Source of the DNA: an uncultured delta proteobacterium
GTDB taxonomy: Bacteria; Desulfobacterota; Binatia; Binatales; Binataceae
Length of the DNA stretch: 64,000 nt
Assembly: GCA_963810495.1 (NCBI GenBank)
Contig: CAWENP010000001.1
Coordinates: 72,990-136,989 of the forward strand
Direction: 5' to 3'
A model generated the notes under the pieces. The model was not told the DNA's origin and searched no databases. It was given only the letters and a program-made list of their open reading frames with translations. Shown piece after piece: positions 1-47,502 of this stretch. Made by a program: the position numbers and the translations under genes. Within the stretch, counting starts at the first letter, position 1, and each line of letters starts with the position of its first letter.

Positions 1-10
1 AAAGAGCACG

Positions 11-1069: not shown

Positions 1070-1375
1070 ACCTGCCTTCTCATGTGGCTAGGGCTGAAGC
1101 CAAAGCTTCGGATGGGGCAACGTGATGCGGTCGGCACCAAAATCCACCGGCTCGTCGACCACGAAAGACCAATTGAAACAGCCGCGGCCCTCGACCATTT
1201 ACCTTCCGCGGATCGGCTCGCCGGCTTCGAGCAGGCGCACGAGTGGAGGAGTAGCCAGGATCCCATGTTGGTCCAGGATGCTGTCACAGTGCTCACCAAC
1301 ATCGGTGGATACAAATCAGACTTGCGCGCGGCCGAGGCAGCGCCTAAAGCCGCGCAGGACCGCGAAAGCAACTCT

Positions 1376-1990
1376 TTACGCTGAGCCCAGGAGTACACTT
1401 GCGACAGTACATATCTCGTGCAGGAGCGTCGCGTAAAATTCTTCGGCCGTCGTGAACAGTTCTCGCGGCGGCATCGTCACGCGATCGGTGAGCGAGCTGT
1501 AGAATGCCTTCGAACCTGCGGTTTCGAGTTCCGGACGCTGCGGCATGTTGGCGACAATCAATTCCGCCGCGTCGATCGGATCATGCTCGTGCGCCTCGAT
1601 CTTCGGCAGTTTGTCGATCACACCCTGCGGCAGGTCGCATTGTTCGAGATTGAAAACGCGGTAATGGCGTAGAAGAAACCGGCGCTGGGCTTCTTCGTTT
1701 CCGGCGTCGTCGGTCTCGTCTTCCTTCTGGTCAATCCTCCAGAAAACGATGACGGTGCTTTGCTCGCCCCTGCGGACGCTTCCGCCAAGCTCGTTCGCTT
1801 GTCTGATCGTTAACCAGAGCGGCGAGACATACTTGCTCGCGGATAACAAAAAGTGGTTGATGCCCCGATAGGGCTTTTTCGTAACGAGATTGCGCGGCAG
1901 TCCGCCAGAGGTCCAAGGCCTACGCCACGGCACAACGCCAGCCTCCAGCATGGCAACGATCTTGTCGGTTACGATTTGGTACACGTCCAT
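1376..1990 (-). CDS. ardC: ArdC-like antirestriction protein, N-terminal ssDNA-binding domain (DUF1738); C-terminal metalloprotease part lost after the LLHE motif (frameshift/truncation)
   Basis: MDVYQIVTDKIVAMLEAGVVPWRRPW...YRGINHFLL matches the ArdC_N signature; the ORF ends at FYATLLHE, where ArdC normally continues with HExxH... Confidence 0.55.
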   Translation of the reverse strand: MDVYQIVTDKIVAMLEAGVVPWRRPWTSGGLPRNLVTKKPYRGINHFLLSASKYVSPLWLTIRQANELGGSVRRGEQSTVIVFWRIDQKEDETDDAGNEEAQRRFLLRHYRVFNLEQCDLPQGVIDKLPKIEAHEHDPIDAAELIVANMPQRPELETAGSKAFYSSLTDRVTMPPRELFTTAEEFYATLLHEICTVASVLLGSA

Positions 1991-2252
1991 TTTGTCTCTC
2001 CTGTCCCTAAAAAGGGAATTTTTCCGTCGTCCCTCTCACAACAGGACCGAGGGCGACGAAAAATTCGGAAATCAGGAATCTTGGACTGCGACGGCGCAAA
2101 GCTTCGCGGACGCAGGCGAGGACGCTTTCACCTGGCCGAGGCCGCGCGGCGCGACAAGCCACAATGAGTTATTGTTCGTTGCTACTTTGGGGGTGGGCGA
2201 CTAGGCGAAAAAAAGGAGAGATGCCTCGCGTGGTGGAAGCCCTCGGATTCAG

Positions 2253-2830
2253 ATGGTTCATTCCGACATGCGGCAAATAGGGGGTCCATTGCGCCGCCGA
2301 AAAAAGCCTTTCGAGTCAAAAGCGTGCACGAACGTCGCGTTTGCAACCACGAACCGTCGGAGCTGGCCGACCTCTTACAAATGGAAGTCGAAGTACGGCG
2401 GGTTGGAGATCTTGCACGCGAAGCAGCTCAAGGCGCTGGAGGATGAGAATCGGTAATTGAAGCGGCTGTTGGCGGACTCGCTCCTGGACAACGCAACGCT
2501 CAAGGGCCTGCTCGGAAGAAACGTCTGAAGCCTGCGGCGCGGCGAGTAGCCGTGATTCGGGTGATGGAGCGTCACGGGCTGAGTCAGCGGCATGCGTACG
2601 AATTGGTGGGGCTGGATCGTGCGACTCTGCGCTACCGGTGCAGACGACCGGACGACTCGGCAGTGAGGCAACGACTCCGAGAGCTGGCCTCGGGGCGGGG
2701 GCGCTTCGGGAATCGGCGATTTGGGGTGGATGCCGGCGCGGGAAGGTCGCGCACTGAATCACAAGAAACTCTATCGACTGTACGGCGAGGAGCGGCTGAT
2801 GGTGCGCCGACGCAGGTCGTTTCTGTAGCG
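2253..2830 (+). mobile_element. IS3-family insertion sequence remnant (OrfA C-terminal leucine-zipper fragment plus ~90 codons of the OrfB N-terminus, with stop and frameshift; truncated at both ends)
   Basis: KWKSKYGGLEILHAKQLKALEDENR*LKRLLADSLLDNATLKGLL (OrfA-like); ERHGLSQRHAYELVGLDRATLRYR...LRELASGRGRFGNRRF then EGRALNHKKLYRLYGEERLMVRRRRSF in the next frame (OrfB start). Confidence 0.55.
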
Positions 2831-2950
2831 GAGGGCGCGACGCGAATGCGCTTACCAGCCGGCAAGGATCGCTCGTTCCGGCGCCGTGCGCGCTTCGCCT
2901 TCAGTTCGTTTAGTCATATAGCGCCGTGCATAGCTGCAGCCGGACGAGGT

Positions 2951-3811
2951 TCAGCGGAGCGAATCGCATGTGCTTAGCGCCTTAGTCGCGGTTCGTCGCG
3001 CGTAATCGAGCTGCCGCCTGAACGCGCCTTTTTTTGATAGGTCGCGGGCAGTCAGTATTTCGTCCCTGATTTGTTGTTCTGAGAGGCCGCGGCTTGCGGC
3101 GTATAGAGCCCACGCCATGTCAGCGCAATGCAGATCCCCGCTGTATCGAGGATCCGAGTGGAACTCAGTGAGGGGCCGTATCGAATCTTCGGTCGAAGTC
3201 CAACGTGAGATCGTCCACTCCGCGCGTTCGGCACGGGCCTTCTCTTCGAGCGATTTCACTTCCTCGAGAAATTCGCGCGCTGCGCTGTAAGAGCGGCCCT
3301 CGCATTCATGCAATCGTACGAATGGTTGGAGACCATTGCTCAAGCGCCGCTTCGGCTTCTGGTTCGTGAAACCGGCGAGCCGACCAAAGTGGCGCCAATC
3401 GGCGCTGGAAGGATCGCCTCCGAAGCGACGGGCCAATTCCTTAGCTGCTTGGGTGCTGAACGTGTGATCGGAGAGCACTCGTCCGTGGTTGACCCATACC
3501 TGAAAGTTGCCGGACGAAGTCTCTACGACGACAGCTGGCTGAAAGCCCGCCTCTTTCATCGCAGCGATCGCTTCAGCGCTGACATCATCGACCACGCTGA
3601 GAGCATGAGCGCCGTGTGGGCGGACGAAGATGTGCGCACCGTGTGCATTTTCCCGTCTGAACCAGCTGATTGCCGCGTCGACCTGCTCGGCATTCCAACG
3701 CTCGCGCAGCAACATGCGTCCGTTGCGATGAAAGATGCCAACGTCGAATCGTTGGCATCCCATCGCGGAGAGCTGCTTAGCGACGATCGATCGTGCGATT
3801 GAAGCGCTCAT
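2951..3811 (-). CDS. RepB'-type DNA primase domain protein (RSF1010 RepB' / conjugative primase family)
   Basis: C-terminal 286 aa of the 707-aa ORF: AHGAHIFVRPHGAHALSVVDDV...GFQPAVVVETSSGNFQVWVNH...GGDPSSADWRHFGRLAGFTNQKP; ATG at 3811. Confidence 0.55.
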   Translation of the reverse strand: MSASIARSIVAKQLSAMGCQRFDVGIFHRNGRMLLRERWNAEQVDAAISWFRRENAHGAHIFVRPHGAHALSVVDDVSAEAIAAMKEAGFQPAVVVETSSGNFQVWVNHGRVLSDHTFSTQAAKELARRFGGDPSSADWRHFGRLAGFTNQKPKRRLSNGLQPFVRLHECEGRSYSAAREFLEEVKSLEEKARAERAEWTISRWTSTEDSIRPLTEFHSDPRYSGDLHCADMAWALYAASRGLSEQQIRDEILTARDLSKKGAFRRQLDYARRTATKALSTCDSLR

Positions 3812-3849
3812 TGACACTGCTTTAGGCGGCGCCGTTGGCGGAGAAATTC

Positions 3850-5074
3850 CGCTCAGATTTTGCTGGTCGCTTTTCCCATCGTCGTTGTGCTGTTGCCGTT
3901 CCCATAGCGCGCTGTGCCTGGATTTATCGCCGTTGTATTTGGGGCGCGCGACGGCATGACCGACGTGCCGCGAACATCCTTGGGTGCCGGCACGCGCTGT
4001 CCGCTGTCGGGACCAAGATTGCTCAGTTGTTGCGTTTGCCGACCAAAGTCCATTGCGTTGACCCAGCCGGCGCGCTTCGCTGCTATTGCCCGCGCTGCCG
4101 CTGCCGAGTTGCGCGGCCTTGTTGAATCCGGTCTGGAGCGCGCTTGTGATCGGCCGAATGACGGTTTGAGCGATAAATGCAGCTTCGAAAGCATGGCTCA
4201 GAGCGAGGCCGACTGTGCCGCCGGCAATACTGGCCGCCATGTGTACGGAACAGCAATGCTTACGATCATGAAGACAATGGCACCCGCCGTGTAGTTGAGC
4301 ATTGCCGATACCGGTATGGCTTCCCGAACAAACTGTCGTAACGATTGAGCTGGGCGGAACTCCGTAAGTGGTCCACCAAGGCAGAGTCGCGGGAATTGGT
4401 TTGCAGGCAGCGATCAACGCGGCGCTCCATTGGTTGGCCATCTGCACTCCGATCGCCAGAACGAGATAGAAGAAGAGAAGTCTGACGCCGACACGGATGA
4501 CGTAGCCGAAGTAGCCTTCTGCTGCCGGAGCCGTGAAGCGGTTTGCGCCAAAGCCCAAGCAGGATGCACTCCACCGCCCACGACCAGATAAGATTCGATC
4601 AGGGTGAGCAGCAGCATCGCCGCCGTGATCACGAATGAGAGAAGGACGACGAAGGCGGATATGCTTTGAACGATTGCGAGCTCGAAGTTCGTCATCATGC
4701 TGGCGTTTGCCGGAGAGTTGAAAATCGTGTTGGCCATGTTGGCGCCGATATGCGAGCACGGTCTGTGGACTGAGGGCGGGTAGACCGGTGATAGATGCAC
4801 CGATGGCGGAGAAGCTCTTGAGCACAGCATTCATCCACGAGAATGCGTTGACGATCATCAAGTAGACGAACCCACCGCTCAGCACTTGTTTGATGAGCCG
4901 GCCTAGGAAATGTGGTGCGTCAAGCTGACCTTCGGCGGTGAATTGAATCCAGGTTACGAGGATGTCGATCAGCAGAAGCGCGATAAAGAGCTTGAGCGCA
5001 TAGGGTTGGATGGCAGCGCTGTAATTGAGGCCTGCGTTGTAATATTGGGCTGCAATTGCATCGAAGCCGCTCAT
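3850..5074 (-). pseudogene. trbL: TrbL/VirB6 conjugal transfer protein, reading frame switches at least twice (around 4740 and 4560)
   Basis: TrbL-like N-terminus MSGFDAIAAQYYNAGLNYSAAIQPYALKLFIALLLIDILVTW in one frame; hydrophobic continuation ELAIVQSISAFVVLLSFVITAAMLLLTLIESYLVVGGG in ORF 4414..4830; the middle of the 707-aa ORF is R/H-rich out-of-frame text. Confidence 0.5.
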
Positions 5075-5328
5075 GATTGTGGACCTCCAAAAGAAGTCTT
5101 CTTTTATGGCTGTGGCGGTGGTGCCCCGGCGTAGCGTTGAGAAAGTCGGGAAGGCCCGAGGGTGCGGGCGCGCTAAAGATCTGAGCGTGCTTGTTCTTCA
5201 GCGACCTGTCGCTGATAGAGATGCCAGACGCCGTAAAGCGACTGCGCATACTCCGATGATCGCCAAGACCAAGATCGACGGGTTCTTCTGCCTTTGATTC
5301 ATTCTCTTACGACTGCTCGCATCAATTG

Positions 5329-6048
5329 CTAAGGTTGCGGCGGCGGTGGTCGCGAGCCGCAGCAGTGCAAAGAGTCCGGAGTGCCGGCCGGCGCAGGCGC
5401 AGAGAATAATGCTTGCGCCGCAAGATTGCTTTGCACCTGATTGTTGACCTGGTTCGCCGCCGCGACGTTCTGCGAATTCATCTCGGCCATCACGAGCTGG
5501 CGGAGCATCTGAACCTGCTGTACCTGCGCGAGCGCGATTTCGTTGCTGACCTGAACCGCCTGCAGATTACCTATCGCCGTTTGGTTCTTGAGCTCAAGGG
5601 TTTGCAGCGTGGCTTGTTCGGCCTGGAAGTTCTGGGCCTGCGCCTGCGCTGAAGCGAGCGCACCGTTGAGCGTGTTCAGCGTGGTATCGATCGTCGTTTG
5701 CGGACTCTGGACTCCTGCGGTCGAGGCAGCGTTGAAGCCCGGATAGAGTTGCTGGAACTGCTGCGTCAGGCCCTGAAAGGTGTACGAAAGCCCTTCCTGC
5801 TGATTGATCAGATTGCCGAGGTTCGTGAGCAGATTCTGGTTCGACTGCCAGACCCCTGCGCCGCCGCCGGTCGTGTTCTTGATCGCGTACTGAAGTTGCT
5901 GCGCGAGGTTCGTGACGGTAGCGGTTTCCTGCTGAAGCTGCTGGAGCTGGCGGGCGAACATATTCGGGTCGAAGACAATCTGCGTGCCGCCTCCGAACTG
6001 GGCGCGGGCAGGAACGGACCTTCCGAACAGACAAACCAACGCGGCCAC
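5329..6048 (-). CDS. trbJ: TrbJ/VirB5-like conjugal transfer protein; the signal-peptide N-terminus (MKCTK.. at 6088) is in a different frame, implying a frameshift near an A-run
   Basis: IVFDPNMFARQLQQLQQETATVTNLAQQLQ and a Q/N-rich coiled coil typical of TrbJ; upstream in-frame text reads KALAHFLAIVAALVCLFGRSVPARAQ (signal peptide) but hits a stop at 6085. Confidence 0.65.
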   Translation of the reverse strand: MAALVCLFGRSVPARAQFGGGTQIVFDPNMFARQLQQLQQETATVTNLAQQLQYAIKNTTGGGAGVWQSNQNLLTNLGNLINQQEGLSYTFQGLTQQFQQLYPGFNAASTAGVQSPQTTIDTTLNTLNGALASAQAQAQNFQAEQATLQTLELKNQTAIGNLQAVQVSNEIALAQVQQVQMLRQLVMAEMNSQNVAAANQVNNQVQSNLAAQALFSAPAPAGTPDSLHCCGSRPPPPQP

Positions 6049-6268
6049 GATCGCGAGGAAATGCGCGAGAGCTTTTCGTGCACTTCATTGATGTATCTCC
6101 CTTTGATTGAGCTTCCCGTTGGTATGGAACGGAATTCCCGTTCACTCCGATGATCGCTTCTAACGGGCGTCTCGACATGACCGTGGAGTTTGTCGAGGTA
6201 CTCCGCCCAGTCGTGCAATCCGCGCGCGCGAAGCCATTCGACGGTCCAGCGATCGCCGTGCTGTTCGA

Positions 6269-8500
6269 TCATCCGTCGCGCGGCGAGTACATCGTCCTTC
6301 GATCCCGCGCCGATAAAGGCGAGCGCCGCAGGACCGAGCGAGAACTGGAACAGCCGCCGCCCGAGCGGCGAAACGTAATAGTAGTGCCGCTTGGGAGTGG
6401 CATCGGCGACGATGTCGATCTGCCGATCGGAAAGTCCGAATCGTCGGTACATCTCCGGCTCGCGGTGTTCTTCGCCTCGGGATTCGGCAGATAGAGCTTC
6501 GTCGGACAGGACTCGAGAATCACGTCGCGATGAGGCGAATTGGCAATTTCGCTCAGGCTCTGCGTCGCGAGCACCACCGCGGCGTTCTTCTTGCGCAGCG
6601 TGCGAAGCCACTCCTCGATCTTCGCGCCAAAGACGCTGTTGGTGAGCATGATCCACGCTTCATCGAGGATGATGAGCGTGGGTCTGCCGTCGAGGCGCTG
6701 ATCGATGCGGTGGAAGAGATAAGTGGCGACGGGCACGACGACCTTCGGCCCCATCGCCATCAACGTTTCGAGCTCGAAGGTGACGAAGCGCCCTTCGAGC
6801 AGAACGTCATGGTCGGCGTCAAGGAAGCGCCCGAGCGGACCCGCGAGCGAAAAGGCGCTCAGCCCGTCGCGCACGACATTGTCCTGCACCTGGGTGACGA
6901 GGTTGCTGATGGTGCGCTGCTCCGGCGGACCTTCCGCGACCAGTTCAAGCGCGCGCCACAGCGCCTTGCGCTGATTCGGAACGAGTCGAACGCCCTGAAG
7001 TTCGAGCCAGTCTTCGAGCAGTCCCTGCAGCTTCATCCGGTCGGTCTCGTCGTCGATGCGCGCGAGCGGTTGCAGCGGAACCTCGTCCTCTCCGAGATCG
7101 AGATGCTGTCCGCCGAGAGCCTTGGTCAGAACGTAGGCAGAGTAGCCCTTGTCGAAGAAGAAGACCTGCCCGTCAGGAACTGCACGGAAGTTCGCCGCGA
7201 TCGTGCCGAGCGCGACGCTCTTGCCGCTCCCCGTTGGACCGTAGATGCCGGTATGACCGGTATCGCCAACATGCAGGTTTAGCCGGAAGGGCGTGCTGCC
7301 CGTGGTCGCGCCGTAGCAAAGCGCCGGCGTGTTCTTCGGATAGTAGGGGCACGGGTTGGTCGCGAGCCCCGCCCAGATGCTCGTTAGCGGCAGAATGTCG
7401 GCGAGGTTCTGAGTGTTAACCAGCGGGCGGCGCACGTCGTACCAGCCGTGTCCCGGGAGCGAACCGAGCCACGCTTCGACTGCGTTGATGGTTTCGATGC
7501 GCGGATCGAAGCCCATGTTCTGGCAGACCTTGAAGACCAGCTGCGCGTTCTCATCGGCAACGTCGGCCCGGTCTTCGGTGATGATCACCTTTGGCGTGAC
7601 GTAGCAATATCGAACCGCGCCGCCCTCGGCCTCGGTGATCGCCTCGTCGGCGTCAGCCGCCATCTTGAGCGCATGCTGGTTCTGAAAAGCTGCTCCCGCG
7701 CCGGAGCCGAAATGTTCGCTGATGATGCCGCGCAGTCCGAGTCGCTTCTGGAACCAGTTGCGCCGATACACGGTCAGCTGGCTGATCGCCGTCCGCGGGC
7801 CTACGGGAATCCCGCGCGTTGAGTAGCGATAAGAGATCGGCAGTTCGCTCAGGAACGCGGCCATCTCCGCGTAGGAGAAGGGCGGGAACCCGGCCAGCGC
7901 GACGACGCGGATGTGCCTGCCGCCGATGCGCGGTTTGAATCCCGCGATCAAATCCTGATTGCCGAGAACCGCGTCCAGATAGGTTGGCGTTCTCGGCGCG
8001 GCGATTTCGCACATCCGCCCGTTGATGCAGCTCGCGAGATGCGAAAGCAAAGCATCCATCCGGAGCGGAGTCAGTTTCCAGACCGGGCTGATCGCATCTT
8101 CAAACTCGCGGAGTCTCTGCTTGAACCATCCGAGCTGTCGCCGCCAGTCGGCACGCTTCGGCGTGCCCGAGAGGAAGACGCCGGCGATCCGCGTTTGCGC
8201 GTCGGCCGGCGGGCGATACGTGATCGTGAGAACGCATCTTGTCTCGAAGTGCTGGCCCTCCTCCGAATATTGAATCTCCCGCTCGCGATCGAGCGTCGCG
8301 CTGACCGGATCGGGAAACGTTCGGCTCGGGTATTCAACGCTCGGATGACGGATGAGGTCGACGTTGTACATGAAGCCGTCGTCCAGACGCGCAAGTGCGC
8401 GATTGGCCTGCGCGCGATGGGCGTCGAGTTCTTCGACGCTCGCAGAATTGAGGTCGAGCCCCGAGCACTCGAAGGCCGACAGGAACGCGCCGTCCTTCAT
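6269..8500 (-). CDS. trbE: TrbE/VirB4 conjugal transfer ATPase; N-terminus (8501-8606) and C-terminus (~6164-6480) lie in other frames, so at least 2 frameshifts
   Basis: Walker A GPTGSGKS; MFLKEFKDLRRKRDKLLGLPDQLNYAIP (TrbE N-terminus) in ORF 8334..8606; C-terminal ATPKRHYYYVSPLGRRLF...WLRARGLHDWAEYL in ORF 5808..6656. Confidence 0.75.
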   Translation of the reverse strand: MKDGAFLSAFECSGLDLNSASVEELDAHRAQANRALARLDDGFMYNVDLIRHPSVEYPSRTFPDPVSATLDREREIQYSEEGQHFETRCVLTITYRPPADAQTRIAGVFLSGTPKRADWRRQLGWFKQRLREFEDAISPVWKLTPLRMDALLSHLASCINGRMCEIAAPRTPTYLDAVLGNQDLIAGFKPRIGGRHIRVVALAGFPPFSYAEMAAFLSELPISYRYSTRGIPVGPRTAISQLTVYRRNWFQKRLGLRGIISEHFGSGAGAAFQNQHALKMAADADEAITEAEGGAVRYCYVTPKVIITEDRADVADENAQLVFKVCQNMGFDPRIETINAVEAWLGSLPGHGWYDVRRPLVNTQNLADILPLTSIWAGLATNPCPYYPKNTPALCYGATTGSTPFRLNLHVGDTGHTGIYGPTGSGKSVALGTIAANFRAVPDGQVFFFDKGYSAYVLTKALGGQHLDLGEDEVPLQPLARIDDETDRMKLQGLLEDWLELQGVRLVPNQRKALWRALELVAEGPPEQRTISNLVTQVQDNVVRDGLSAFSLAGPLGRFLDADHDVLLEGRFVTFELETLMAMGPKVVVPVATYLFHRIDQRLDGRPTLIILDEAWIMLTNSVFGAKIEEWLRTLRKKNAAVVLATQSLSEIANSPHRDVILESCPTKLYLPNPEAKNTASRRCTDDSDFPIGRSTSSPMPLPSGTTITFRRSGGGCSSSRSVLRRSPLSARDRRTMYSPRDG

Positions 8501-8624
8501 CGCGATTGTGTAGTCGTCGATCGGGAATTGCGTAGTTGAGCTGGTCGGGCAGCCCGAGCAGCTTGTCGCGCTTTCGTCTTAAATCCTTGAACTCTTTGAG
8601 AAACATATTCCCACCTCTCCACCA

Positions 8625-8966
8625 TTACGCGCGCATCTCCTTCGGTGTCGGTACAGACGGCCGGATTCGGGGTGGCGACGCAGAGATTGAGGCGCGAGCC
8701 GGATAGTAGTCCTGGTAGCGGACGTGCCGGACGTAGACCCGGCTGAGCTGGGGATCGAACTTCGCCGCCTGAACCAGCGCCCAATGCCCGACCGTCAGCA
8801 GGAACGCTCCCATGGCGATCGTGTACCAGTGGAGTCCGCCGCCAAGGATCAAGGCGGCGGCGGTGATCCAGTTTGCGATCGCCAGAGGACGTTCCGCTCC
8901 CGCCAGAAGAATTGGCTGGGTGAGCGATTGATGAATCGCGCTTACCCGCCGCTCGCTTTCCGCCAT
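8625..8966 (-). CDS. trbD: TrbD/VirB3 conjugal transfer protein
   Basis: 113-aa membrane protein between TrbC and TrbE; LLAGAERPLAIANWITAAALIL is VirB3-like. Confidence 0.65.
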   Translation of the reverse strand: MAESERRVSAIHQSLTQPILLAGAERPLAIANWITAAALILGGGLHWYTIAMGAFLLTVGHWALVQAAKFDPQLSRVYVRHVRYQDYYPARASISASPPRIRPSVPTPKEMRA

Positions 8967-8979
8967 CGGCCCATCCTCC

Positions 8980-9363
8980 CTAAAAGAGCGCTCCGCCGAG
9001 CGGAAACAGCGTCGTCATCAGCTGCGTCGCGCCCAGCGCGCACGAGCCGCCGAAGGCGAGCGACGACATCTTCCGCACGCCGGTTCCGTGTTCGCTGACC
9101 GACCACATGATCCCGGTACCGATGATCGCGGCGGTGGTGATCGCGTGAGCGACCGGACCCTGCAGGTCGTTCTGCAGAGTCGTGAGTGGCGCGTCCCACG
9201 GCAGTGCGCCGCCAGCCACCGCGGCGAACGCTCGCGCAGGCCAGGCAACGGTCAGAACGCCGAAGGCGTACGTGACCATTGATGCCCACTTTGCCAACAA
9301 ACCTTTCATCTCTTTCAAACGCTTCATTTTGCGAACCTCCTTGGTTGATTGAATAAACCTCAA
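8980..9363 (-). CDS. trbC: TrbC/VirB2 pilin
   Basis: Small protein with signal peptide and two hydrophobic segments, immediately downstream of trbB and overlapping its stop. Confidence 0.65.
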   Translation of the reverse strand: MRFIQSTKEVRKMKRLKEMKGLLAKWASMVTYAFGVLTVAWPARAFAAVAGGALPWDAPLTTLQNDLQGPVAHAITTAAIIGTGIMWSVSEHGTGVRKMSSLAFGGSCALGATQLMTTLFPLGGALF

Positions 9364-10265: not shown

Positions 10266-10346
10266 CTATCGCCGCCAGAATTCTTGTCCCGAGTTGGCGT
10301 CTGAGGAGTTCGTCCAGGCGTCGTTCCTGAAGCTGCTGCGCCGAAA

Positions 10347-10791
10347 TCATGCCGACTCTCCGTTCCGGCTCGCGCCGCTCTTCGGCGCTGGCGCTGACTG
10401 TTCCATCCGTTTCAGCGTCTCCTCGACCTCTGCGCGCCATCCGCGATGGCGGCGCTGGCCGGAAGCGAGGGCTTGCTTGCGTTGCGCTTCGGGGATTTCC
10501 GCCAGATGGCTCAACATGCTCAGAGCGAACTGATCGATCATGGCAAGCAGCGTGGTGAGCTGGTGGGCGACCGGTTTCAGGGTTTCCGCACGCGGAAACA
10601 CGACTGGCCTGGATGATTCGCTTTTCAGCTGAGGCGAGCGCGGCGTCCGAGAAAGTCAGCCCCGAACCGCCATCAGCTTGAAAGAGACGCTCCTTCACGT
10701 ATCGCGACAGCGTGATGCCGCGCTCGTCGGCTTCGTCGCGCAGCCGATGAAATTCTTCTTCGCTCAGGTAAGCGGTGAGTTGTCGCCTCAC
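10347..10791 (-). CDS. ribbon-helix-helix (CopG-family) protein of the transfer operon; body continues in a second frame (frameshift ~10580-10605)
   Basis: MRRQLTAYLSEEEFHRLRDEADERGITLSRYVKERL (RHH) in one frame; plausible continuation KPVAHQLTTLLAMIDQFALSMLSHLAEIPEAQRKQ in ORF 10347..10601. Confidence 0.45.
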
Positions 10792-11022
10792 AGTAGTCTC
10801 TCCTTGGCGTCCTGGCTGCTCGCCCTATCGTCGGAGCCGTCTTTGTTTTCGATAGCGAATCTAAGGAACGAGAGTTGCTTGCCGGGTTGCGATTTTGCGG
10901 CGGGTTCCTTCGCAGCAATCACCGCCGGCGCGAGCGTCTCGGGAATGGTCGTTGCGCCTTCGCTCTGCGGCTCGACTTGTGCGACGGTCTCGACCTCCGG
11001 CTCTTTGTCGCGCTCGATTCGA

Positions 11023-12885
11023 TCACTCGCGTCGGGCGGCTTGATTGCCGACAGCCGTCTGAAGTACCGCTGCTTGTGGTATGTGAGCAACGGCGCTCGG
11101 ATGGGGTGCTGGCCGCGCGCGAAAATCAGCACCTCGTCCACGGCCATGCATCGCGCCTCGTCCGGGGTCATCAAGGGCCGCGCCCGTCTCCGGTTCCGAG
11201 ATGCTGGCGCCGCCCCCGGATTGTGTGCGATACGCGTGGCGAACGCTGGTCTGGCCGACCAGCCGGGAAATCTCTTCGGCACTGTCGATGTTGTTGGGCG
11301 TGAACCTGACCATGCTGTCGCAGTTGTCGGTGATCGACTCGTTGGTGCCGTAAAACTTGTAGATCTGGCTCAGGCTCTGCACCGCCAGGCAGGCACGCAC
11401 GCCGAATCCGGCCATGTGGCTCATCGCCTCGGCAAACGGCTCGAAGTGCTGGAGCAAGGCGAACTCGTCGAGCATCAGGAGCATCGGGCGGCGGTGCGGC
11501 GACACGGGGCGGCCGTCTTTGTACGCGAGCTTTGCCGTCAGCCGCCCAACGATCTGATTGATCATCAGTCTCATCAGGGGCCTGAGCCGGTTGCGGTGTT
11601 CGTGAGGCACGTTCAGGTAGAGCGATGCCGGGTGCTGGTGATTAACAAGATCATCGATCCTGAACTCTGAATACTCGGTTGCGGCGGCAATGAGCGGGTC
11701 GCGGTACAGCGGCAGCCGCCTGACTACTTCGCCCACCACGCCGCTTCGCTCTTTTTCGGCTTTGTTCAGCACCTCTCTCATGCTCTCGGCGACGCTCGGA
11801 TGGGTACGAGTCGGCTCGCCGCGCGAGGTCCGCCAGCCCATCGCCCCGGCAGGATCGTGCTCCGCCGTCATCATCCGGTTGATGGTCTCGTCGATGGGCG
11901 AGGATGGATCGCTCAAAAGCCCGACGAGGCCGCGCAGAGTCTTGGCTGGCTCGACATACAGGATGTGGAGGATGGCTCCGGTTAGGAGCGCCATACCGGC
12001 CGCGACCCAGTAATTGTCGTTTCCGAAGCCGCGGCCATCGGGGTCGACCAGCATCTGCACGATGTTCTGCACGTCGGCGGTTTCATACGGGGTCCTGAGG
12101 CGCACCTCTTCCAGCGGGTTGTACTTGACGCCGGGATCGTCCGGATTGGTCGGATTGAATCTGAAGCACAGATGGCCCATCCGTTTGCGCGCCCCGGCGG
12201 TCACCTTCCAGAGTTCTTCCTTGAAGTCGTGGACGAGCGCCGAGTGTCGCCACGTGAGCAGGGTTGGAACCATCGTGTTGACGCCCTTGCCGGCGCGGGT
12301 CGGCGCCTCGATCAGGACGTGTCCGGGGCCGCAGTCGCGCAGATAATGGAGTCTGCCGTGAACGCGCCACGCGCCCAGATAGATTCCGTCGCGAGGTTCG
12401 AGCGGCTTGAGCTTGCCCGCGTGTTCCAGCCGTTCGGCGAAGCCAGCGCGGCAGGTAACTCGGCGGAGCCAGGAACCCGGTCGCGCGCACGTCGCGTGTG
12501 TTGGCCCATCGCGCCGAACCATGCAGGTCGGGCGTGCTATCGGCGAGCCACCACGCGCGAGGTTGATTGCGCCCGCCGCGATCGCGGCGGCCACGAGCAA
12601 CGGTAGCGCCGCCTCGCGCGCGCACAGATCCCAAACCGGTTGCAGCTGCATCGCGCCGTGCCATCGCGTCCACCAGACGATCCATTCCCATGGAGCGTAT
12701 AACCTGCCGGCAAGATTTGGCCCGAGCGCCCGCGCATAACCAAGCATCCGCGCGGCGCGCTCTGTCACCCACCAGTTGATGACCAGCGCCGCCGCCGCGA
12801 AGCTCGCTACGCTGATGAACTTGACCTGGTCGAGGCGCGCCTTCGCGGACCTGTTCGCGACCCGGTAGGGACGATATTCCGCCAT
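11023..12885 (-). CDS. traG: TraG/VirD4 type IV coupling protein; the conserved HGSARWA motif sits in an alternate frame (12487-12538), implying two compensating frameshifts
   Basis: IYLGAWRVHGRLHYLRDCGPGHVLIEAPTRAGKGVNTMVPTLLTW and LLMLDEFALL in the main frame; TPDLHGSARWANTRDVRATGFLAP in ORF 12083..12772. Confidence 0.8.
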   Translation of the reverse strand: MAEYRPYRVANRSAKARLDQVKFISVASFAAAALVINWWVTERAARMLGYARALGPNLAGRLYAPWEWIVWWTRWHGAMQLQPVWDLCAREAALPLLVAAAIAAGAINLARGGSPIARPTCMVRRDGPTHATCARPGSWLRRVTCRAGFAERLEHAGKLKPLEPRDGIYLGAWRVHGRLHYLRDCGPGHVLIEAPTRAGKGVNTMVPTLLTWRHSALVHDFKEELWKVTAGARKRMGHLCFRFNPTNPDDPGVKYNPLEEVRLRTPYETADVQNIVQMLVDPDGRGFGNDNYWVAAGMALLTGAILHILYVEPAKTLRGLVGLLSDPSSPIDETINRMMTAEHDPAGAMGWRTSRGEPTRTHPSVAESMREVLNKAEKERSGVVGEVVRRLPLYRDPLIAAATEYSEFRIDDLVNHQHPASLYLNVPHEHRNRLRPLMRLMINQIVGRLTAKLAYKDGRPVSPHRRPMLLMLDEFALLQHFEPFAEAMSHMAGFGVRACLAVQSLSQIYKFYGTNESITDNCDSMVRFTPNNIDSAEEISRLVGQTSVRHAYRTQSGGGASISEPETGAALDDPGRGAMHGRGRGADFRARPAPHPSAVAHIPQAAVLQTAVGNQAARRE

Positions 12886-12890
12886 GACGA

Positions 12891-13901
12891 CTACCTCTCC
12901 AGCCCGCGCTCTACGCTCATTTGCCGCTGGCGGTCGCGGGCGCGGGTCTTGATCACGTCATTGGATTGCTGGCGGTCGCGAAGCTCGCGCTCATGGTTTT
13001 CGGAAAGCTGCCATGACCGTTCGTCGATCCGCTGCGCCAGTCCGAGCCCGGTGAGGTAATTGAGCCGATCTATCTCCTGCTCGGCTCGAATCCGAGGCCC
13101 CTCATTGAGTGGTTGGAACTGGTCGTATGTGACGATGCCGTTCGCATCAGCCTTTCTCTGCAAGGCGCGGTCGATCTCGGTCCACTGCTCGCGTCTGACC
13201 ACGCGTTCACGTGCCCGCAGCATCTCCGGCTCCAGACGCGGACCCAGTTCGCGCGTCGCGATCTCCTGGCTGCGGATACGAATGCCCGAGCGCAAATACT
13301 CGCGGTTGATCTCCAGTGGCCTGCCATTCTCCCGAACGCCACGGACCAGCAGATGAACATGCGCGTCGTCCGTGTTGTGATGATCGATCGCGACCCACTC
13401 CAACTTTGTGTCGAGGTCGCGTCCCATCCGACTAACCAGTTCCCGCACATGTTCGCGAAGGTTTAGACGGTCCGCGTCTTCGGGGGACACAATGAAGCGC
13501 CACATCAGCTCGTCGCTCTTTTCCCAGTCTCTGACTGTGGCGAGCATGTCGATTTCCTCGCGCTCCGCGTCGAACCCCAACCCCTTGGCAAATTCCTGTT
13601 GAGCGCCGGGGCGCGCGAGGTAGCGAGCGTGCGCTGCCCACGCACCGCTGCGGCGGTTGCGCGAGAATGACGCCTTGACCACGCTGCGCCGCGCGTATGC
13701 CGGTGGTTCTGAGACGCGAACTCGCGCCGCGCGCATCCCGCTCAGACTTCCGCTCGGCTGCTGATGGCGGAGACCCCGTCGCATGCCCATCCGCCCCAGT
13801 GCGCGCGCCCACCACGGCACGAGTTTGCGCGGACGCTCCGCATGCTCGTGGCGAAGCTTGATATCCACCTCCCTCTGTCGCAGGAACCTAGGCCGTTTCA
13901 T
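12891..13901 (-). CDS. conjugative relaxase (HUH relaxase/mobilisation nuclease, VirD2-like, DUF3363-type N-terminus); 336 aa, possibly C-terminally short
   Basis: AHARYLARPG...LEWVAIDHHNTDDAHVHLLVRG (HUH motif)...REYLRSGIRIRSQEIATRELGP; directly upstream of traG. Confidence 0.7.
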   Translation of the reverse strand: MKRPRFLRQREVDIKLRHEHAERPRKLVPWWARALGRMGMRRGLRHQQPSGSLSGMRAARVRVSEPPAYARRSVVKASFSRNRRSGAWAAHARYLARPGAQQEFAKGLGFDAEREEIDMLATVRDWEKSDELMWRFIVSPEDADRLNLREHVRELVSRMGRDLDTKLEWVAIDHHNTDDAHVHLLVRGVRENGRPLEINREYLRSGIRIRSQEIATRELGPRLEPEMLRARERVVRREQWTEIDRALQRKADANGIVTYDQFQPLNEGPRIRAEQEIDRLNYLTGLGLAQRIDERSWQLSENHERELRDRQQSNDVIKTRARDRQRQMSVERGLER

Positions 13902-14298
13902 CGCACACCTCGGTCAATGCCTCGCTGAGGGCTAGTACCAGCTTGGTCGGATTCTCCGGTGTCTGTCCGCCAAGCGCCTCGATGATCTCGCGCACCTGCC
14001 CGCTGCTGAGCGTGATCGCATGGAGATCCTGTGCGCGCCGCCATGACTTCCACGCGCGCTTGCCGGTCGCCCGTTCGTCGAGTTTCTTGCGCCCGATTGT
14101 CGCAACGAGTGCGCGCTGCGAAGTCGTAAGTTTGGTGGCTTCCTGCGCGACGCTCAGTAATGCGCCCAGCAAAAAGTCCGGCGGCTCCAGATCGAGCCCC
14201 GCCAGTGCGATCAGTCCACCGAGGTTGGCGAGATGATGCACACGGAGCCCTTGCTCAGGGCTGTGACTGTCGCCATTGCCGTTACCGTTGCTGCTCAT
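13888..14298 (-). CDS. hypothetical protein between traF and relaxase (candidate relaxosome accessory protein)
   Basis: ATG at 14298, 5 nt after the traF stop; 136 aa MSSNGNGNG...; no recognisable motif. Confidence 0.4.
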   Translation of the reverse strand: MSSNGNGNGDSHSPEQGLRVHHLANLGGLIALAGLDLEPPDFLLGALLSVAQEATKLTTSQRALVATIGRKKLDERATGKRAWKSWRRAQDLHAITLSSGQVREIIEALGGQTPENPTKLVLALSEALTEVCDETA

Positions 14299-14303
14299 GG
14301 CAT

Positions 14304-14909
14304 TCACCACACGACGACCGGTTTGATCTCGCCGCGTACGTTGGCGAGCGGAACCGGGCCGAAGTAGCGCGAGTCCCAACTCCGGCGATCGTTAAAACCG
14401 AACAACCACACCTGGCCAACCGCGACTCGATGGCTGCCCCACGCGACATGAGGAAGTGGACGGCCCGCGCTGTCGTGCGTTGCGACGGCGCAGCGTTTGA
14501 AACGCACGCCGTTGACTGCGACCCATCCGGGTTGGATCACGACAACGTCCCCGGCAAGAGCGCCTACGATCTTGCCAACCGGCTCCGCGTTACCAACGCA
14601 CGCGCCGGTGCGCAGATATCCGTGGGCCAGACCTTCCTGGGCGAGCGCAATCGGCAGGCAGGCAACGACCAGATCGCCACGTTGGAATTTCCCGGAGACA
14701 ACGCGATAGACCCCGACGGGAGCGGCACTGTCGGTGTCCGAAATCAGCACGCCGAACGCATTGCCGACCGCGATCAGGACCGCTACTGCAATCGCAATTC
14801 CGGCCATCGCCCCGATGGGTCCGCGCGCACCTTCCAGACGCTGTAAATGCAGGCGCTGAGCAAGCGATCCGGCGGGGTTTTCTGCCGTGCTGCACAGTGT
14901 GCCGCTCAT
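14304..14909 (-). CDS. traF: TraF-type conjugative signal peptidase (S26 family)
   Basis: Signal-peptidase I-like WDSRYFGP motif; N-terminal TM segment; position next to the relaxase as in Ti/ICE tra modules. Confidence 0.7.
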   Translation of the reverse strand: MSGTLCSTAENPAGSLAQRLHLQRLEGARGPIGAMAGIAIAVAVLIAVGNAFGVLISDTDSAAPVGVYRVVSGKFQRGDLVVACLPIALAQEGLAHGYLRTGACVGNAEPVGKIVGALAGDVVVIQPGWVAVNGVRFKRCAVATHDSAGRPLPHVAWGSHRVAVGQVWLFGFNDRRSWDSRYFGPVPLANVRGEIKPVVVW

Positions 14910-15087
14910 GACCGCCTCCGAGGGGGAAAGGCCGCGAGTTCGTTGGAGAATCCGCCGAAAATGCCGCGCCGTACCGCAGGTCCTTTATCTTGCTCTACGA
15001 ACGACCGGCCTTCCCCCCTCTCCAACTCGACCTCCAAATCCCCTCTTTCCGCGCGCCGCAAAGCGGCGGAGAAATTCCCGAAAATCC

Positions 15088-15333
15088 TCACTGCACTTTC
15101 TCCGCAGAAGGCTCGCTTGCGCGGCCATTCAGTTTCCGGCCCGGACGAGGCGCACCTTCGAGCTCGGCCTTGATCTGTTTGCAGAGCCGCCACATCGCCG
15201 CCGTAATCGTCTCGCCCAGATCGAAGCCGGCGTCTTCGGCCCGGCTGCGTAGTTGGTCGATCTCCCGTTTGAGCGCAGCTGGCAGCTTGAAGGTGATCGC
15301 TTCGCTTTCCTGTTTGCGTTTGAGAACTCCCAT
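15088..15333 (-). CDS. small ribbon-helix-helix-like DNA-binding protein
   Basis: 81 aa MGVLKRKQESEAITFKLPAALKREIDQLRSRAEDAGFDLGETITAAMWRL (beta-strand, two helices); ATG at 15333. Confidence 0.4.
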   Translation of the reverse strand: MGVLKRKQESEAITFKLPAALKREIDQLRSRAEDAGFDLGETITAAMWRLCKQIKAELEGAPRPGRKLNGRASEPSAEKVQ

Positions 15334-15365
15334 CGCACTTCTCCTTGAAAAATTGGATTGCGGAT

Positions 15366-16502
15366 TTACTTCCCGTAGGGGCCGGGGAATACGAGGTCCT
15401 GGGTGATCATCACGTCGAACTGATAGCCCGGCCGGATTTCGATCGTTGGCGGCCGATTCAATCCCTGCCCCATCATCTGCTGACCCAGCGCACCGAATTG
15501 TCCCGAGGCGGCTGAACCCGCCGTCTGGCTCGCCATCGCCCACTGATTCGGTTGGTAGTAACCGTACGGTCCGTATGTGCCACCGCCTCCGAGCGTCGCC
15601 ATCTGGCCGACCGCCTGTCCGGCGCTGATCAGGCTCATCACGGCGGCAGTTCCAAACGTTGCAAGGTAATGGTGGTCGACCTGATCGGAGAAGCCGGCGT
15701 AACCGCTCTGATCGGCCCCCGGCATCATTGGCAGATTCATGCTGGCGGTGTTGGGAAAGATGAGACGCTGCCACGCGATCTGAACGCGCTGCTGGCCGTA
15801 TGAAGACGCGTTCTGATAGGCGCCGATGAGGCGACTCCCCTGCGGGATCAGAACCGATCTGCCGGTCGCGCTGTCGAGAACGTTCTGGCTGACCTGCGCG
15901 AGAATCGGTCCGGGCAGATCCGAATTGATGCCGCTGATCAGGACTGCCGGAAGAATGCTTCCCGCCATCACCGTATACGGCGAAGCTGCGGGATGAACGC
16001 TTATCGCCGGGTTGTTCTGATCACCGGAAATATACGAGTCGGCCTGTTGTCCTTTAGCGCTCGCGATCTCGAGTGTTCCGCCACTATGAAACGCCTGCAC
16101 CATCTCCGGCGATTCGAGCGCCTTCATGTACTTCTCTTCGGCCCATTGCGCATACCGGCTGGGAGGCTTCGGCGCGCTCGGCTGAACCGGCGCCTGGGAG
16201 ATCGGCAGGGCCGGTATCGGCATGACCGTCGGTGCCGCGTGGGGCAGTGCGCCATGAGCCGCGAGGTCCTCGATTTCGCCGCGATCTCGGGCTGCCGAGC
16301 CTGGGTCATCCGCCAATTTCTGGGAAGCGGAACTTTGACTGTTTCCCGAGGACTGGACACCGAGTGCAAGCGCCACTCCTCCGACCATCGCGACCGCGAC
16401 GAAAACAACGCCGAGAAGGCGATTGAACCGGCCGCCCCCGAGGTGCTCCTGTTCCTGCTCTTCCTGTTCCTGAATCACTTCTGCGGTTGCCATGGCTGTC
16501 AC
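15366..16502 (-). CDS. trbI: TrbI/VirB10 conjugal transfer protein
   Basis: N-terminal TM, Pro-rich linker, C-terminal IPQGSRLIGAY...RVQIAWQRLIFPN...GYQFDVMITQDLVF (VirB10 signature). Confidence 0.8.
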   Translation of the reverse strand: MTAMATAEVIQEQEEQEQEHLGGGRFNRLLGVVFVAVAMVGGVALALGVQSSGNSQSSASQKLADDPGSAARDRGEIEDLAAHGALPHAAPTVMPIPALPISQAPVQPSAPKPPSRYAQWAEEKYMKALESPEMVQAFHSGGTLEIASAKGQQADSYISGDQNNPAISVHPAASPYTVMAGSILPAVLISGINSDLPGPILAQVSQNVLDSATGRSVLIPQGSRLIGAYQNASSYGQQRVQIAWQRLIFPNTASMNLPMMPGADQSGYAGFSDQVDHHYLATFGTAAVMSLISAGQAVGQMATLGGGGTYGPYGYYQPNQWAMASQTAGSAASGQFGALGQQMMGQGLNRPPTIEIRPGYQFDVMITQDLVFPGPYGK

Positions 16503-17446
16503 CTCGCTCCGCCCGCATAGGAGATGGTCACGCGGTCCTGATCGCGGCCGACGCCCGAGACCAAAATCGCGTCGCTGAAGAGCCGGTCGACGACGTAGTA
16601 ATTTCCCTTGACCCGGTAGTTCACCATCTGGGTTCCGCTGCCTGCGTTGATGAGCAGCGCGGGAGCTTCGCTCGACTTCATTCCGGCCGGCATCTGCACA
16701 TACACGTGAGAGCCGTCATCGAAGGCACGAATCGGCTTCCACGGAATGTTTGGCCCTGCGACGGTGTAGGCGAAGTTGAGCTGTGCCGGATCGACCGCTG
16801 CGACCTTCACGACGTTGTCGGAATCACCCGGCGGATCGACCGCTTCCTGCTTGGCCCTCGATGCGGCTGCGTCGGTAGCTTCCATCGCCGTGGTCAGCTC
16901 CTCGGGGTAGTAGAACTCCACCTCCTGCATCGCGCGTCCGCGCGACCGGAGCAGCAGGTGGTAAATGTGCTTCGTCGTGTAGATCGTCAGGTTGGTTTCG
17001 ATACCGGGAATCTGCGGCTTCACCGCCAGGTGAGGGACGGCATTGCGCGGGTCGCCAGAGGCGGCCGGCGTCGCCATCCAGCGTTCCGTATCTCCCAGCG
17101 CAACATCGGTAATCGTCTCTCCCGGCTGCAGCTGGATGTCGGTGGTGCGCAGTGGCGCGCAATCGACCGCCGGCTCCGGTTTTTGGTTGTAGGGATAGAG
17201 CGTGTACTCGGCCGTTCGGTAGACCGGCCATTTGCCGCCTTGCTGATGCTCCTTGATCGCAGCCTGCACCTCGGCTGGCTGCTGGGCGAGCAGTTGCGCT
17301 CCGGTCGGCGGTGGTGGCGTCGCGGACGACTCCGCCGGGGCCTCTGTTACGATTTTCAGTGGCGGCGGCGTGGATGCTTGTTGCTGACTCGCGCATGCAC
17401 TCAAGAAGAGTGCGAACGTCATCGTGGCAGCTGCCATAAGCTTCAT
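16499..17446 (-). CDS. trbG: TrbG/VirB9 conjugal transfer protein
   Basis: Signal peptide/lipobox (LSACAS), VirB9-like beta-rich body; overlaps the trbI start by 4 nt. Confidence 0.8.
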   Translation of the reverse strand: MKLMAAATMTFALFLSACASQQQASTPPPLKIVTEAPAESSATPPPPTGAQLLAQQPAEVQAAIKEHQQGGKWPVYRTAEYTLYPYNQKPEPAVDCAPLRTTDIQLQPGETITDVALGDTERWMATPAASGDPRNAVPHLAVKPQIPGIETNLTIYTTKHIYHLLLRSRGRAMQEVEFYYPEELTTAMEATDAAASRAKQEAVDPPGDSDNVVKVAAVDPAQLNFAYTVAGPNIPWKPIRAFDDGSHVYVQMPAGMKSSEAPALLINAGSGTQMVNYRVKGNYYVVDRLFSDAILVSGVGRDQDRVTISYAGGAR

Positions 17447-17470
17447 CGCTCTTCCTCCCTTGTGGCCGGA

Positions 17471-18139
17471 CTATCCCTGCTGCTCGGTCCAGCTGATTTG
17501 CGTCACGTAAAATCCGAGCGGATTGCTGATGATCGCGGCGTCGGAATTGGGCGGGACGATCTGCGTCTGGAGTACCGCCTCCCAGTGCGTGGGCGCTCCG
17601 ATAACGACTCCGTTGAGATCGCGTTGCTGCTCCGACCAGCGCACCTGGTAGCTGCTGGGCGAGAGCTGAAGGATCGAATCGATCTGGATCGAAACGGTCT
17701 GCTTCTCCGCGAGCTTGAAGGGGTTACGAGTGAAGCCGTCGGAGTGGTAGTAGGCGTCGAGAAATCTGTCCGCCGCGCCGCGCGCATGCGCGAGCAGCGA
17801 ATTGAGCATCTGATGTTCGACCTGCGAATCGCTGGTGACCGATCGTGCATTGCGAATAAAGGCCGCGACCTCGTAACGCTGCATTCGCGCGGTTACATCG
17901 GGCACGGACGTGGGAGTGAGCGGCTGGGGAACGGTCAGCGCATATCCGAGTTTGTCGACTTCGACGACATAGGGAATGTAGCGGCTTCGGCTGATGAGCC
18001 AGACCATCCCGCTGGCGAGAATCAGCGAGAGCAGAAGCAGCCCGCCGGCCGCTATCTGCCAGTTGCGTTTGCCGAGAACGAGATCGGCGTAACGCTCATC
18101 CCATTCACGACGCGCTTCGACGTAAGGATTTGCGGCCAT
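17471..18139 (-). CDS. trbF: TrbF/VirB8 conjugal transfer protein
   Basis: MAANPYVEARREWDERYADLVLGKRNWQIAA..TM..NTF2-like body typical of TrbF. Confidence 0.75.
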   Translation of the reverse strand: MAANPYVEARREWDERYADLVLGKRNWQIAAGGLLLLSLILASGMVWLISRSRYIPYVVEVDKLGYALTVPQPLTPTSVPDVTARMQRYEVAAFIRNARSVTSDSQVEHQMLNSLLAHARGAADRFLDAYYHSDGFTRNPFKLAEKQTVSIQIDSILQLSPSSYQVRWSEQQRDLNGVVIGAPTHWEAVLQTQIVPPNSDAAIISNPLGFYVTQISWTEQQG

Positions 18140-18330
18140 ACGACGAACACTCCTCGGACGGCCCAGTGACGGCCCGTCCTCTGTCCGTAGATTGTCCGCA
18201 CTTTGTCCGAGAACTCTTCGCGACAGGTTCCAAAAGACCCCGAAGCGAAGTGCGCGAAATCTTGATATTTATTGGGGATTCTCGGTTTGGCTTGGAGCCT
18301 GTGGCAGCATGGAACCGAATGGCATTCAGG

Positions 18331-18363
18331 AGGTCGCGCGTTCGATCCGCGTCAGCTCCACCA
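18331..18363 (+). other. tRNA 3'-end-like fragment (variable loop AGGTC, T-arm GCGCG-TTCGATC-CGCGT, acceptor 3' strand, discriminator, CCA); a 5' half could not be folded, so a candidate att-site remnant rather than a tRNA gene
   Basis: aggtcgcgcgttcgatccgcgtcagctccacca; opposite-strand translation gives the tell-tale LVELTRIERATS. Confidence 0.35.
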
Positions 18364-21635: not shown

Positions 21636-21697
21636 ACCCCCCGTCGCCGTCTGTTCAAATACAGACAAGCAGCGGGCAGATTCTAAGGAAGACAAAC

Positions 21698-45492: not shown

Positions 45493-47502
<2,010 letters not shown>

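Follow-up and report, generated by a model that had tools for sequence, protein, structure and literature searches.

P-type (MPF-T) conjugation systems, such as the Ti-plasmid type, combine the genes trbBCDEJKLFGHI with traG, traF and traD, and their canonical trb order is trbB-C-D-E-J-(K)-L-F-G-(H)-I. In the ICEMlSymR7A and Tn4371 families of integrative and conjugative elements (ICEs), the order is traG-trbBCDEJLFGI. Here we study a set of this kind in a 64,000-nucleotide stretch of DNA from an uncultured delta proteobacterium of the Binataceae (GenBank assembly GCA_963810495.1, contig CAWENP010000001.1, positions 72,990 to 136,989), which we call the window. Positions 1-18372, the part of the element examined here, form the right-hand part of a P-type ICE inserted in a tRNA-Ala(GGC) gene. 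A first-pass annotation, made from the letters alone, had described an unusual gene order and frequent frame switching, and had offered two readings of the latter: that the element is decaying and probably immobile, or that the sequence is locally of low quality. Our results favor the second. We assign a probability of roughly 0.8 to the conclusion that the broken frames of this real ICE, which is of a known kind, are mostly long-read consensus errors in a heterogeneous region and not the result of decay.

Searches with Pfam and NCBIfam profiles find a full P-type transfer gene set, all on the minus strand and running from 18.1 kb down to 1.4 kb of the window, as the first-pass annotation had stated. 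The homologs of VirB2, 3, 6, 8, 9, 10 and 11 (TrbC, D, L, F, G, I and B) all have Pfam matches, and TrbJ is recognized through its homolog on L010, a contig that carries an intact relative. The NCBIfam profiles were run on the intact L010 proteins, standing in for the broken genes of the window. Among these proteins, TrbB and TraF exceed the cut-offs of TrbB_P and TraF_Ti (TIGR02771), TraD is of the Ti type (PF06412), and TrbE, TrbJ_Ti, TrbL_P and the IncP/Ti-type TraG are clear best matches, although TrbE, TrbJ and TrbL score under the curated cut-offs. Profile searches recognize neither trbK nor trbH in the element. The parts that define an ICE, namely a relaxase, a type IV coupling protein and a type IV secretion system (T4SS), are all present. 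Judging by homology, the relaxase would nick oriT, TraG would couple the relaxosome to the Trb channel, TraF would mature the TrbC pilin, and the primase and ArdC would act in the recipient.

The locus departs from the described systems in its order, which reads trbF-G-I, traF, traD-like, relaxase, traG, orf166, trbB-C-D-E-J-(orf64)-L, primase, ArdC. Thus trbFGI come ahead of traF, the relaxase, traG and trbB, upstream of the DNA-processing genes, whereas in P-type systems they follow trbL; and traF, traD, the relaxase and traG fill the interval from trbI to trbB, all in the same direction. The traG-trbBCDEJLFGI order of the ICEMlSymR7A and Tn4371 families is likewise absent. With those families the element shares a relaxase N-terminal domain that matches RlxS, TraF, TraG, a trb-type T4SS, and an integrative lifestyle at a tRNA gene. 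The relaxase here is shorter, however: it measures 336-343 aa against the 654 positions of the RlxS model, and the C-terminal half is missing. In the window the relaxase gene (12891-13901) is intact and encodes 336 aa with a PF03432 (MobA/VirD2-type) domain; the protein is 65-71% identical, over its full length, to its counterparts in L010 and L004. It matches NF041267 (relax_RlxS) over profile positions 69-323 of 654, with 205 bits (E=2e-60) against a cut-off of 850. The earlier assignment to a DUF3363-type relaxase is not borne out, as Pfam reports no DUF3363 match in this protein.

Is the unusual order peculiar to the window copy? A scan of species-representative genomes yields four related loci: L001 and L002, which belong to one metagenome-assembled genome (MAG), L003 and L004. 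A protein search with TrbE finds more than 1200 homologs, many of 840 aa and up to 93% identical, several of which carry the source name Candidatus Binataceae; contigs encoding four of these homologs are L010-L013. The order is identical in every relative that spans the relevant junctions (L001-L004, L010, L012 and L021, the last being introduced below). L001-L004 are collinear with the window over trbF-G-I, traF, traD, the relaxase and traG, and further where the contig permits. In L010 and L012 the order is trbF, G, I, orf99, traF, traD, relaxase (343 aa), traG (702 aa), orf166, trbB, C, D, E (840 aa), J, a small ORF and trbL (403-405 aa). The genes of L010-L013 are full-length throughout, and in none of these four contigs does trbFGI follow trbL, where varying cargo is found instead (LPD7 proteins, a sigma factor, IS21 or Fic). 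Because the order is common to relatives that include intact ones, it is real, conserved and compatible with intact elements. It is a conserved trait of a large family, and not a mark of rearrangement or decay of the window copy. The family is large, mostly uncharacterized, and found in soil bacteria, with source names that include Binataceae, Verrucomicrobiia and delta proteobacterium; its trbFGI-first architecture and short RlxS-like relaxase mark a widespread, uncharacterized family of soil ICEs.

Among plasmids a close annotated relative appears to be absent. A megablast search of the whole region against plasmids returns just short trbB matches at 72-83% identity, and tblastn with TraG finds nothing above about 45% identity. 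Exact look-ups of the window's TraG and TrbF proteins find no record in the protein collection.

Frame-breaking insertions and deletions

We aligned 15 L010 proteins to the window with a custom frameshift-aware protein-to-DNA aligner, which reports zero shifts in the intact relative L012. (A reference-free plot of reading frame by codon usage proved too noisy inside the element.) A single frame suffices for TrbF, TrbG, TrbI, TraD, the relaxase, TrbC and TrbD. The remaining alignments, taken together with the comparison to a sister assembly, yield approximately 16 frame-breaking insertions or deletions (indels) of 1-2 nt that are private to the window. No in-frame stop codon occurs in any corrected alignment.

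The coupling-protein gene traG (10788-12885; PF02534, 6e-71, with its C-terminal part in another frame) has private indels at 12554 (-1), 12432 (+1) and 11181 (+1), and orf166 (10350-10791), whose N-terminus weakly resembles ribbon-helix-helix (RHH), NikA-like proteins, has a private +1 at 10592. The ATPase gene trbB (9360-10350; PF00437, T2SSE) has a private +1 at 10261, across which its product is 84.8% identical to L010 TrbB. When shifts are allowed, the VirB4 homolog trbE (6085-8606) matches all 840 of 840 residues of the intact P0001/L010 TrbE, itself a match to NF010447 (E=4e-231), at 93.5% identity; its indels lie at 8521 (+1), 6456 (-1), 6161 (+1, also present in the sister) and 6132 (-2, as against -3 in the sister). 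One private +1 is found in trbJ (5329-6088, 86% identical to an L010 homolog that matches TIGR02780), at 6065, and another at 5239, in the small ORF between trbJ and trbL (orf62/64, approximately 5100-5310, called in L011, L012 and L013). The VirB6 homolog trbL (3853-5074) is the most disrupted: it is 80% identical to L010 TrbL over 404 residues once six shifts are allowed, with insertions at 4753, 4566, 4560, about 4325, 4245 (+2) and 4074. The frame switching that had been proposed for TraG, TrbE, TrbL, TrbB, TrbJ and the RHH protein (orf166) is therefore confirmed by frameshift-aware alignment to L010.

It had also been asked whether the long open reading frames might be continuous homologs. 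One candidate, a TrbL-primase fusion protein (ORF 2951-5197), we reject: TrbL homology ends at 3856, and the two genes share a reading frame because of the trbL insertions, so that the fusion is a by-product of frameshifts. A pair of apparent shifts near the TraF N-terminus (15029/14922 in the L010 alignment) is alignment noise in a poorly conserved region, where window and sister do not differ and both have a 201-aa gene.

ArdC, for which frame switching had likewise been proposed, presents a different case. Its gene (1376-1990) encodes an N-terminal fragment with PF08401 (ssDNA-binding) and the start of the metallopeptidase domain (partial PF18818). In the window and in the sister locus L021 alike, alignment to homologs of 287-294 aa ends at residue 194-198, with no continuation past that point in another frame. 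ArdC is thus not frameshifted but cut short, at about residue 194 of 289, with most of the metallopeptidase domain lost. Several other short ArdC entries, of 191-235 aa, exist in the protein collection; the sister ArdC lies at L021 17372-17947.

The sister assembly is contig_19695 of ENA assembly ERZ25039540 (element loci L014 and L021, chromosomal locus L019), which we reached through the closest homolog of the window's ArdC. The exact PPK1 protein of the window is encoded on eight contigs of related assemblies (four shown), contig_19695 among them (L019). Positions 24.2-45.6 kb of the window's chromosome are 99.7-99.9% identical to L019, and the element aligns to L021 from window position 18380 down to position 1. 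Outside two patches the two elements are more than 99% identical, with 0-11 mismatches per 500 nt. The larger patch (3.5-8.5 kb, trbE to trbL) diverges by about 10% and the smaller (1.4-1.9 kb) by about 5%. In trbE and trbJ, the patches have a synonymous divergence (dS) of 0.43-0.48 and a ratio of non-synonymous to synonymous divergence (dN/dS) of 0.065-0.09. The divergent allele is the sister's, with 199 private changes in trbE. The patches look like the outcome of allelic exchange between related ICEs.

Disruptions due to decay would be expected to recur in independent assemblies of the element. In the six-way alignment described below, however, each assembly has a private set. None of the indels private to the window occurs in the sister, which has about 13 others of its own, located in the region of the TraD-like gene, the relaxase, traG, orf166, trbL, the primase (a +1 at the equivalent of window 3082) and ArdC. 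The trbB gene and the trbE N-terminus are intact in the sister and broken in the window, while the relaxase and primase are intact in the window and broken in the sister. Disruptions reproduced across the assemblies are limited to the ArdC truncation and the +1 at 6161, near trbE residue 816. An altered trbB C-terminus is also common to both, the sister gene being intact and open over 329 aa. Because the sister shares all three, we regard the trbB C-terminus, the 6161 insertion and the ArdC truncation as probably real variants of the lineage. The sister is annotated with a 1091-aa TrbE-TrbJ fusion (L014 3350-6625; L021 10721-13996), which results from the net +1 near TrbE residue 816 and is likely an artefact or a C-terminal lineage variant.

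The window and sister elements are separated by 32 gaps, 28 of them of 1-2 nt. Single-base insertions form the majority of these small indels, and 23 of the 28 extend no base run. In 9 of the 28, the extra base falls right after a CG dinucleotide, against a background of 12% (p=0.005). At two places, in trbL at about 4325 and in traG at 11216/11181, the two assemblies have independent insertions that nearly coincide, 4-35 nt apart. The CG-adjacent and near-coincident insertions may reflect a context-specific effect of basecalling or methylation.

We next consider the pattern of selection, over 2175 codons defined by the intact relatives. Window and sister (L014) differ by 358 synonymous and 118 non-synonymous changes, giving a dS of 0.26 and a dN/dS of 0.094; the intact relatives have values of 0.09-0.17 among themselves. 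No nonsense codon occurs in either window or sister. Thus the two marks of decay, a dN/dS near 1 together with nonsense codons, are both lacking. Private sites were scored in a six-way alignment of the window against the sister and four intact relatives. Substitutions private to the window, at sites that are invariant in the other five sequences, number only 16 (9 synonymous, 7 non-synonymous), beside approximately 13 private frame-breaking indels in the same genes; trbE alone has one private substitution against 3-4 indels. The intact relatives, by comparison, have 49-170 private substitutions and zero frameshifts. In bacterial spontaneous mutation, indels are far fewer than substitutions, occur mostly in repeats, and are biased towards deletion. 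The pattern here is near 1:1, dominated by insertions, and run-extending in only 5 of 28 cases; it therefore misfits neutral decay, and it does fit residual consensus errors.

The earlier claim that disruption is unevenly distributed is upheld, since window-private indels number 16 in 17 kb of the element (0.94/kb) and 3 in 15.8 kb of the chromosome (0.19/kb; p=0.004), the latter scored in a five-way alignment of positions 29754-45563. The chromosome, whose long genes had been called intact, nevertheless has some errors: private 1-nt indels occur at 42198 (just upstream of the start of the thiamine pyrophosphate (TPP)-enzyme gene), at 30174 (a deletion that splits a remnant of a major facilitator superfamily (MFS) gene), and at 29779. 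Within the element, 11 of the 16 indels fall inside the 5-kb divergent patch (2.2/kb). Outside that patch the rate is 0.42/kb, which does not differ significantly from the chromosome (p=0.23). From the contrast between the patch and the rest, which is close to the chromosomal rate, it follows that the enrichment tracks heterogeneity in the population and not the element as such.

The relatives also show a pattern across sequencing technologies. L001-L003 come from MAGs of the Microflora Danica collection, and all three contain frameshifts: in traG, L003 has 14 (9927-11171), packed into the last 1.2 kb of the gene before the contig end, and L002 has 6 (10001-12103). That collection relies on Nanopore reads alone, which were assembled by Flye, with a single round of Medaka polishing (PMC12313526). 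By contrast, the relatives on contigs with short-read-style names (k141 contigs L004 and L011, and scaffold L012) are all intact, as is the JGI contig L013. In L001, L002, L003 and contig_19695, the element lies within about 25 kb of a contig end. For the window and the ERZ2503xxxx assemblies, we infer the platform from contig naming. The disruption here resembles that of frameshift-rich genes in Nanopore/Flye/Medaka metagenomes in that single-base indels split well-conserved genes, the indels differ between independent assemblies, and they are worst at contig ends and in variable regions. It differs in that most of the indels are insertions outside homopolymers.

Integration site and mobility

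The transfer region ends, 180 bp upstream of trbF, at an attR core (18316-18372, plus strand) that comprises the 3' 48 nt of a tRNA-Ala(GGC) and 9 nt more. This core of about 57 bp is the only sequence common to the window, L021 and L022 at the junction, where the flanks differ; its equivalents lie at L021 946-1008, L022 5410-5472 and L023 13612-13688. L022 and L023 are further sister contigs. L022 matches window 18318-23326, with different genes on the far side. L023 represents the empty site: it holds a complete tRNA-Ala(GGC), the homology to the window ends inside that tRNA, and beyond it lie a chromosomal NAD kinase, a protein with an SMC/AAA_23 domain that may be RecN, and transglutaminases. 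Because the empty site holds the whole tRNA-Ala, we identify the core as its 3' end. In the att copies, TTCGATC replaces the TTCAATC of the intact tRNA. ARAGORN finds no tRNA in the window, and Rfam weakly labels the att fragment as the 3' end of a tmRNA; the fragment has a tRNA-like 3' end, and the tmRNA label is rejected in view of L023. The element is thus bounded by an att repeat, on the attR side, for which an unoccupied site exists in a relative.

Four states of this site are found in the population: empty, occupied by the window's element alone, occupied by that element and a second one, and occupied by a different island. The second element, in contig_19695, bears an integrase and measures about 46 kb as deduced from coordinates. 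The tRNA-Ala(GGC) gene is a hot spot for integration, found in at least four states within one species-level population, and such polymorphism among strains that are 97.5-99.9% identical argues for recent mobility. Where the homology between window and L021 stops, at 18380, L021 continues with a tyrosine integrase; as this gene lies beyond the core, we infer that it belongs to the second, tandem element. Window 1-18372 holds no integrase, and Pfam detects none among the ORFs at 18.7-21.4 kb either. As the element extends past the start of the window, its own integrase and attL would have to lie beyond position 1. Homology to contig_19695 reaches position 1, and that contig extends more than 6 kb further.

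A complete tRNA-Thr(CGT) is present in L002 (3055-3130), which is a more remote relative, 1.4 kb upstream of trbF and in the same direction as trbF; members of the family may use different tRNA genes as integration sites.

Errors, decay and other explanations

In the reading that we prefer, the indels in traG, orf166, trbB, trbE, trbJ and trbL would be mostly errors of a Flye-style, probably Nanopore, consensus. They would accumulate where the element is variable, given its presence/absence polymorphism and at least two alleles of trbE-trbL that are 10% divergent, and such variability would leave thinner and mixed local read support. Several observations count against this reading. The classic Nanopore error is a homopolymer deletion, and most of the indels here are insertions outside homopolymers. 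In both sister assemblies the element holds more indels than the chromosome does. The near-coincident insertions at about 4325 in trbL and the shared +1 at 6161 could stem from true mutation or from a systematic effect of context. The truncation of ArdC is genuine, as is the degradation of the neighboring MFS and porin genes, which indicates that the lineage tolerates pseudogenes. The window contains no integrase belonging to the element. L010 is intact although its contig name suggests a long-read assembly, so that technology alone forces no errors. Finally, the platform assigned to the window is itself an attribution from contig names.

Several of these points are what one would expect under true recent pseudogenisation, for example after loss of the integrase or after a first inactivating mutation, with the sister decaying likewise and independently. 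The concentration of frameshifts in the element of both sister assemblies, the ArdC truncation and 6161 insertion that they share, the lack of a Pfam-recognized integrase, and the degradation of MFS and porin genes in three assemblies would all be accounted for. We nevertheless consider this explanation unlikely. It must contend with zero nonsense codons in 2175 and a dN/dS of 0.094, with 16 private substitutions beside some 13 private frameshifts, with a predominance of insertions outside base runs, and with the contrast between intact short-read assemblies of the family and mostly broken long-read ones; moreover, a sister strain has the site empty, which points to recent mobility. The proposal of a decaying, probably immobile element is thus disfavored, and that of a low-quality region retained. 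A special case of the artefact explanation is that the consensus is chimeric, the reads of related elements (80-95% identical) having been collapsed so that the sequence at 3.5-8.5 kb is a blend that exists in no cell. At least one MAG holds more than one copy of the family (L001 and L002, both at contig ends), its elements often end contigs (L001-L003, contig_19695), two 10%-divergent trbE-trbL alleles occur in one population, and 11 of the 16 indels fall in the divergent patch. Yet the window's allele in the patch is coherent and shaped by selection, its TrbE being 93.5% identical to that of L010 with almost no private substitutions, and the density of mismatches to the sister is fairly even across the patch and not block-like, and so we find a chimera decidedly doubtful. 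Least of all do we expect the indels to be real scars of double-strand breaks, inflicted by restriction or CRISPR systems and closed by mutagenic end joining (Ku/LigD) with untemplated insertions of 1-2 nt. Such scars would look much like the single-base, seemingly non-templated insertions outside base runs seen here, enriched in a mobile element in both sister assemblies and preferring the position after CG (9 of 28). If this were true, a population would be inactivating its resident conjugative element by indels much faster than point mutations accumulate. But a like pattern is found in unrelated long-read MAGs of other phyla, where it is worst at contig ends, which speaks for a technical origin, and the short-read relatives show none of it.

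Under the consensus-error reading, apparent decay of genes on mobile genetic elements in long-read MAGs can be an artefact that is concentrated in heterogeneous populations. Pseudogene counts, and calls of ICE mobility, made from long-read MAGs then need checks at the level of reads.

Remaining genes and neighboring chromosome

The other genes of the element, all on the minus strand, are mostly undisturbed. The array starts with trbF (VirB8; 17471-18139; PF04335, 6e-43), which matches all 222 residues of L010 TrbF, followed by trbG (VirB9/CagX; 16499-17446; PF03524, 8e-50) and trbI (VirB10; 15366-16502; PF03743, 7e-60); all three are intact and free of frameshifts. A small ORF at 15088-15345 corresponds to orf81/orf99 of the relatives and is conserved in L003, L004, L010, L012 and L021. 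It precedes the intact gene for TraF, an S26 pilin-processing peptidase (14304-14909; PF10502) of 201 aa, as in the sister L021, and the gene for the small TraD-like protein of the Ti type (13888-14298). Between trbB and trbE lie the intact pilin gene trbC (8980-9327; PF04956), whose product is identical to that encoded by the sister contig, and the intact VirB3 homolog trbD (8625-8966; PF05101), 92% identical to L010 TrbD.

Downstream of trbL, the RepB-type primase gene (2951-3716, start approximate) is intact in the window, with PF16793 and PF22448 in one frame. An ORF at 2316-2762, between primase and ArdC, has no Pfam match and shows 0-1 mismatches per 500 nt against the sister. The element then continues to the window edge (1-1375), a segment that includes a 352-aa ORF on the plus strand (11-1069).

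On the chromosomal side of the junction, L022 and L023 have about 1.2 kb of extra sequence at window 19654/19655, which is missing from the window. Overlapping pairs of chromosomal ORFs flagged in an ORF screen based on GC content at third codon positions (GC3) turn out, by Pfam, to be separate, normal genes. The window, L019 and L020 all show a rearranged, partly deleted MFS-Rrf2-porin O/P region (28600-30800), whereas the MFS (441 aa) and porin (474 aa) genes are intact in L017 and L018; because it is reproduced in three assemblies, this structural variant is real. The chromosome also encodes two di-haem oxidoreductase (DHOR) paralogs, at 21698-23185 and 23931-24866. The second of these aligns with no more than the C-terminal half of the profile; its length varies from 277 to 433 aa across sister assemblies.

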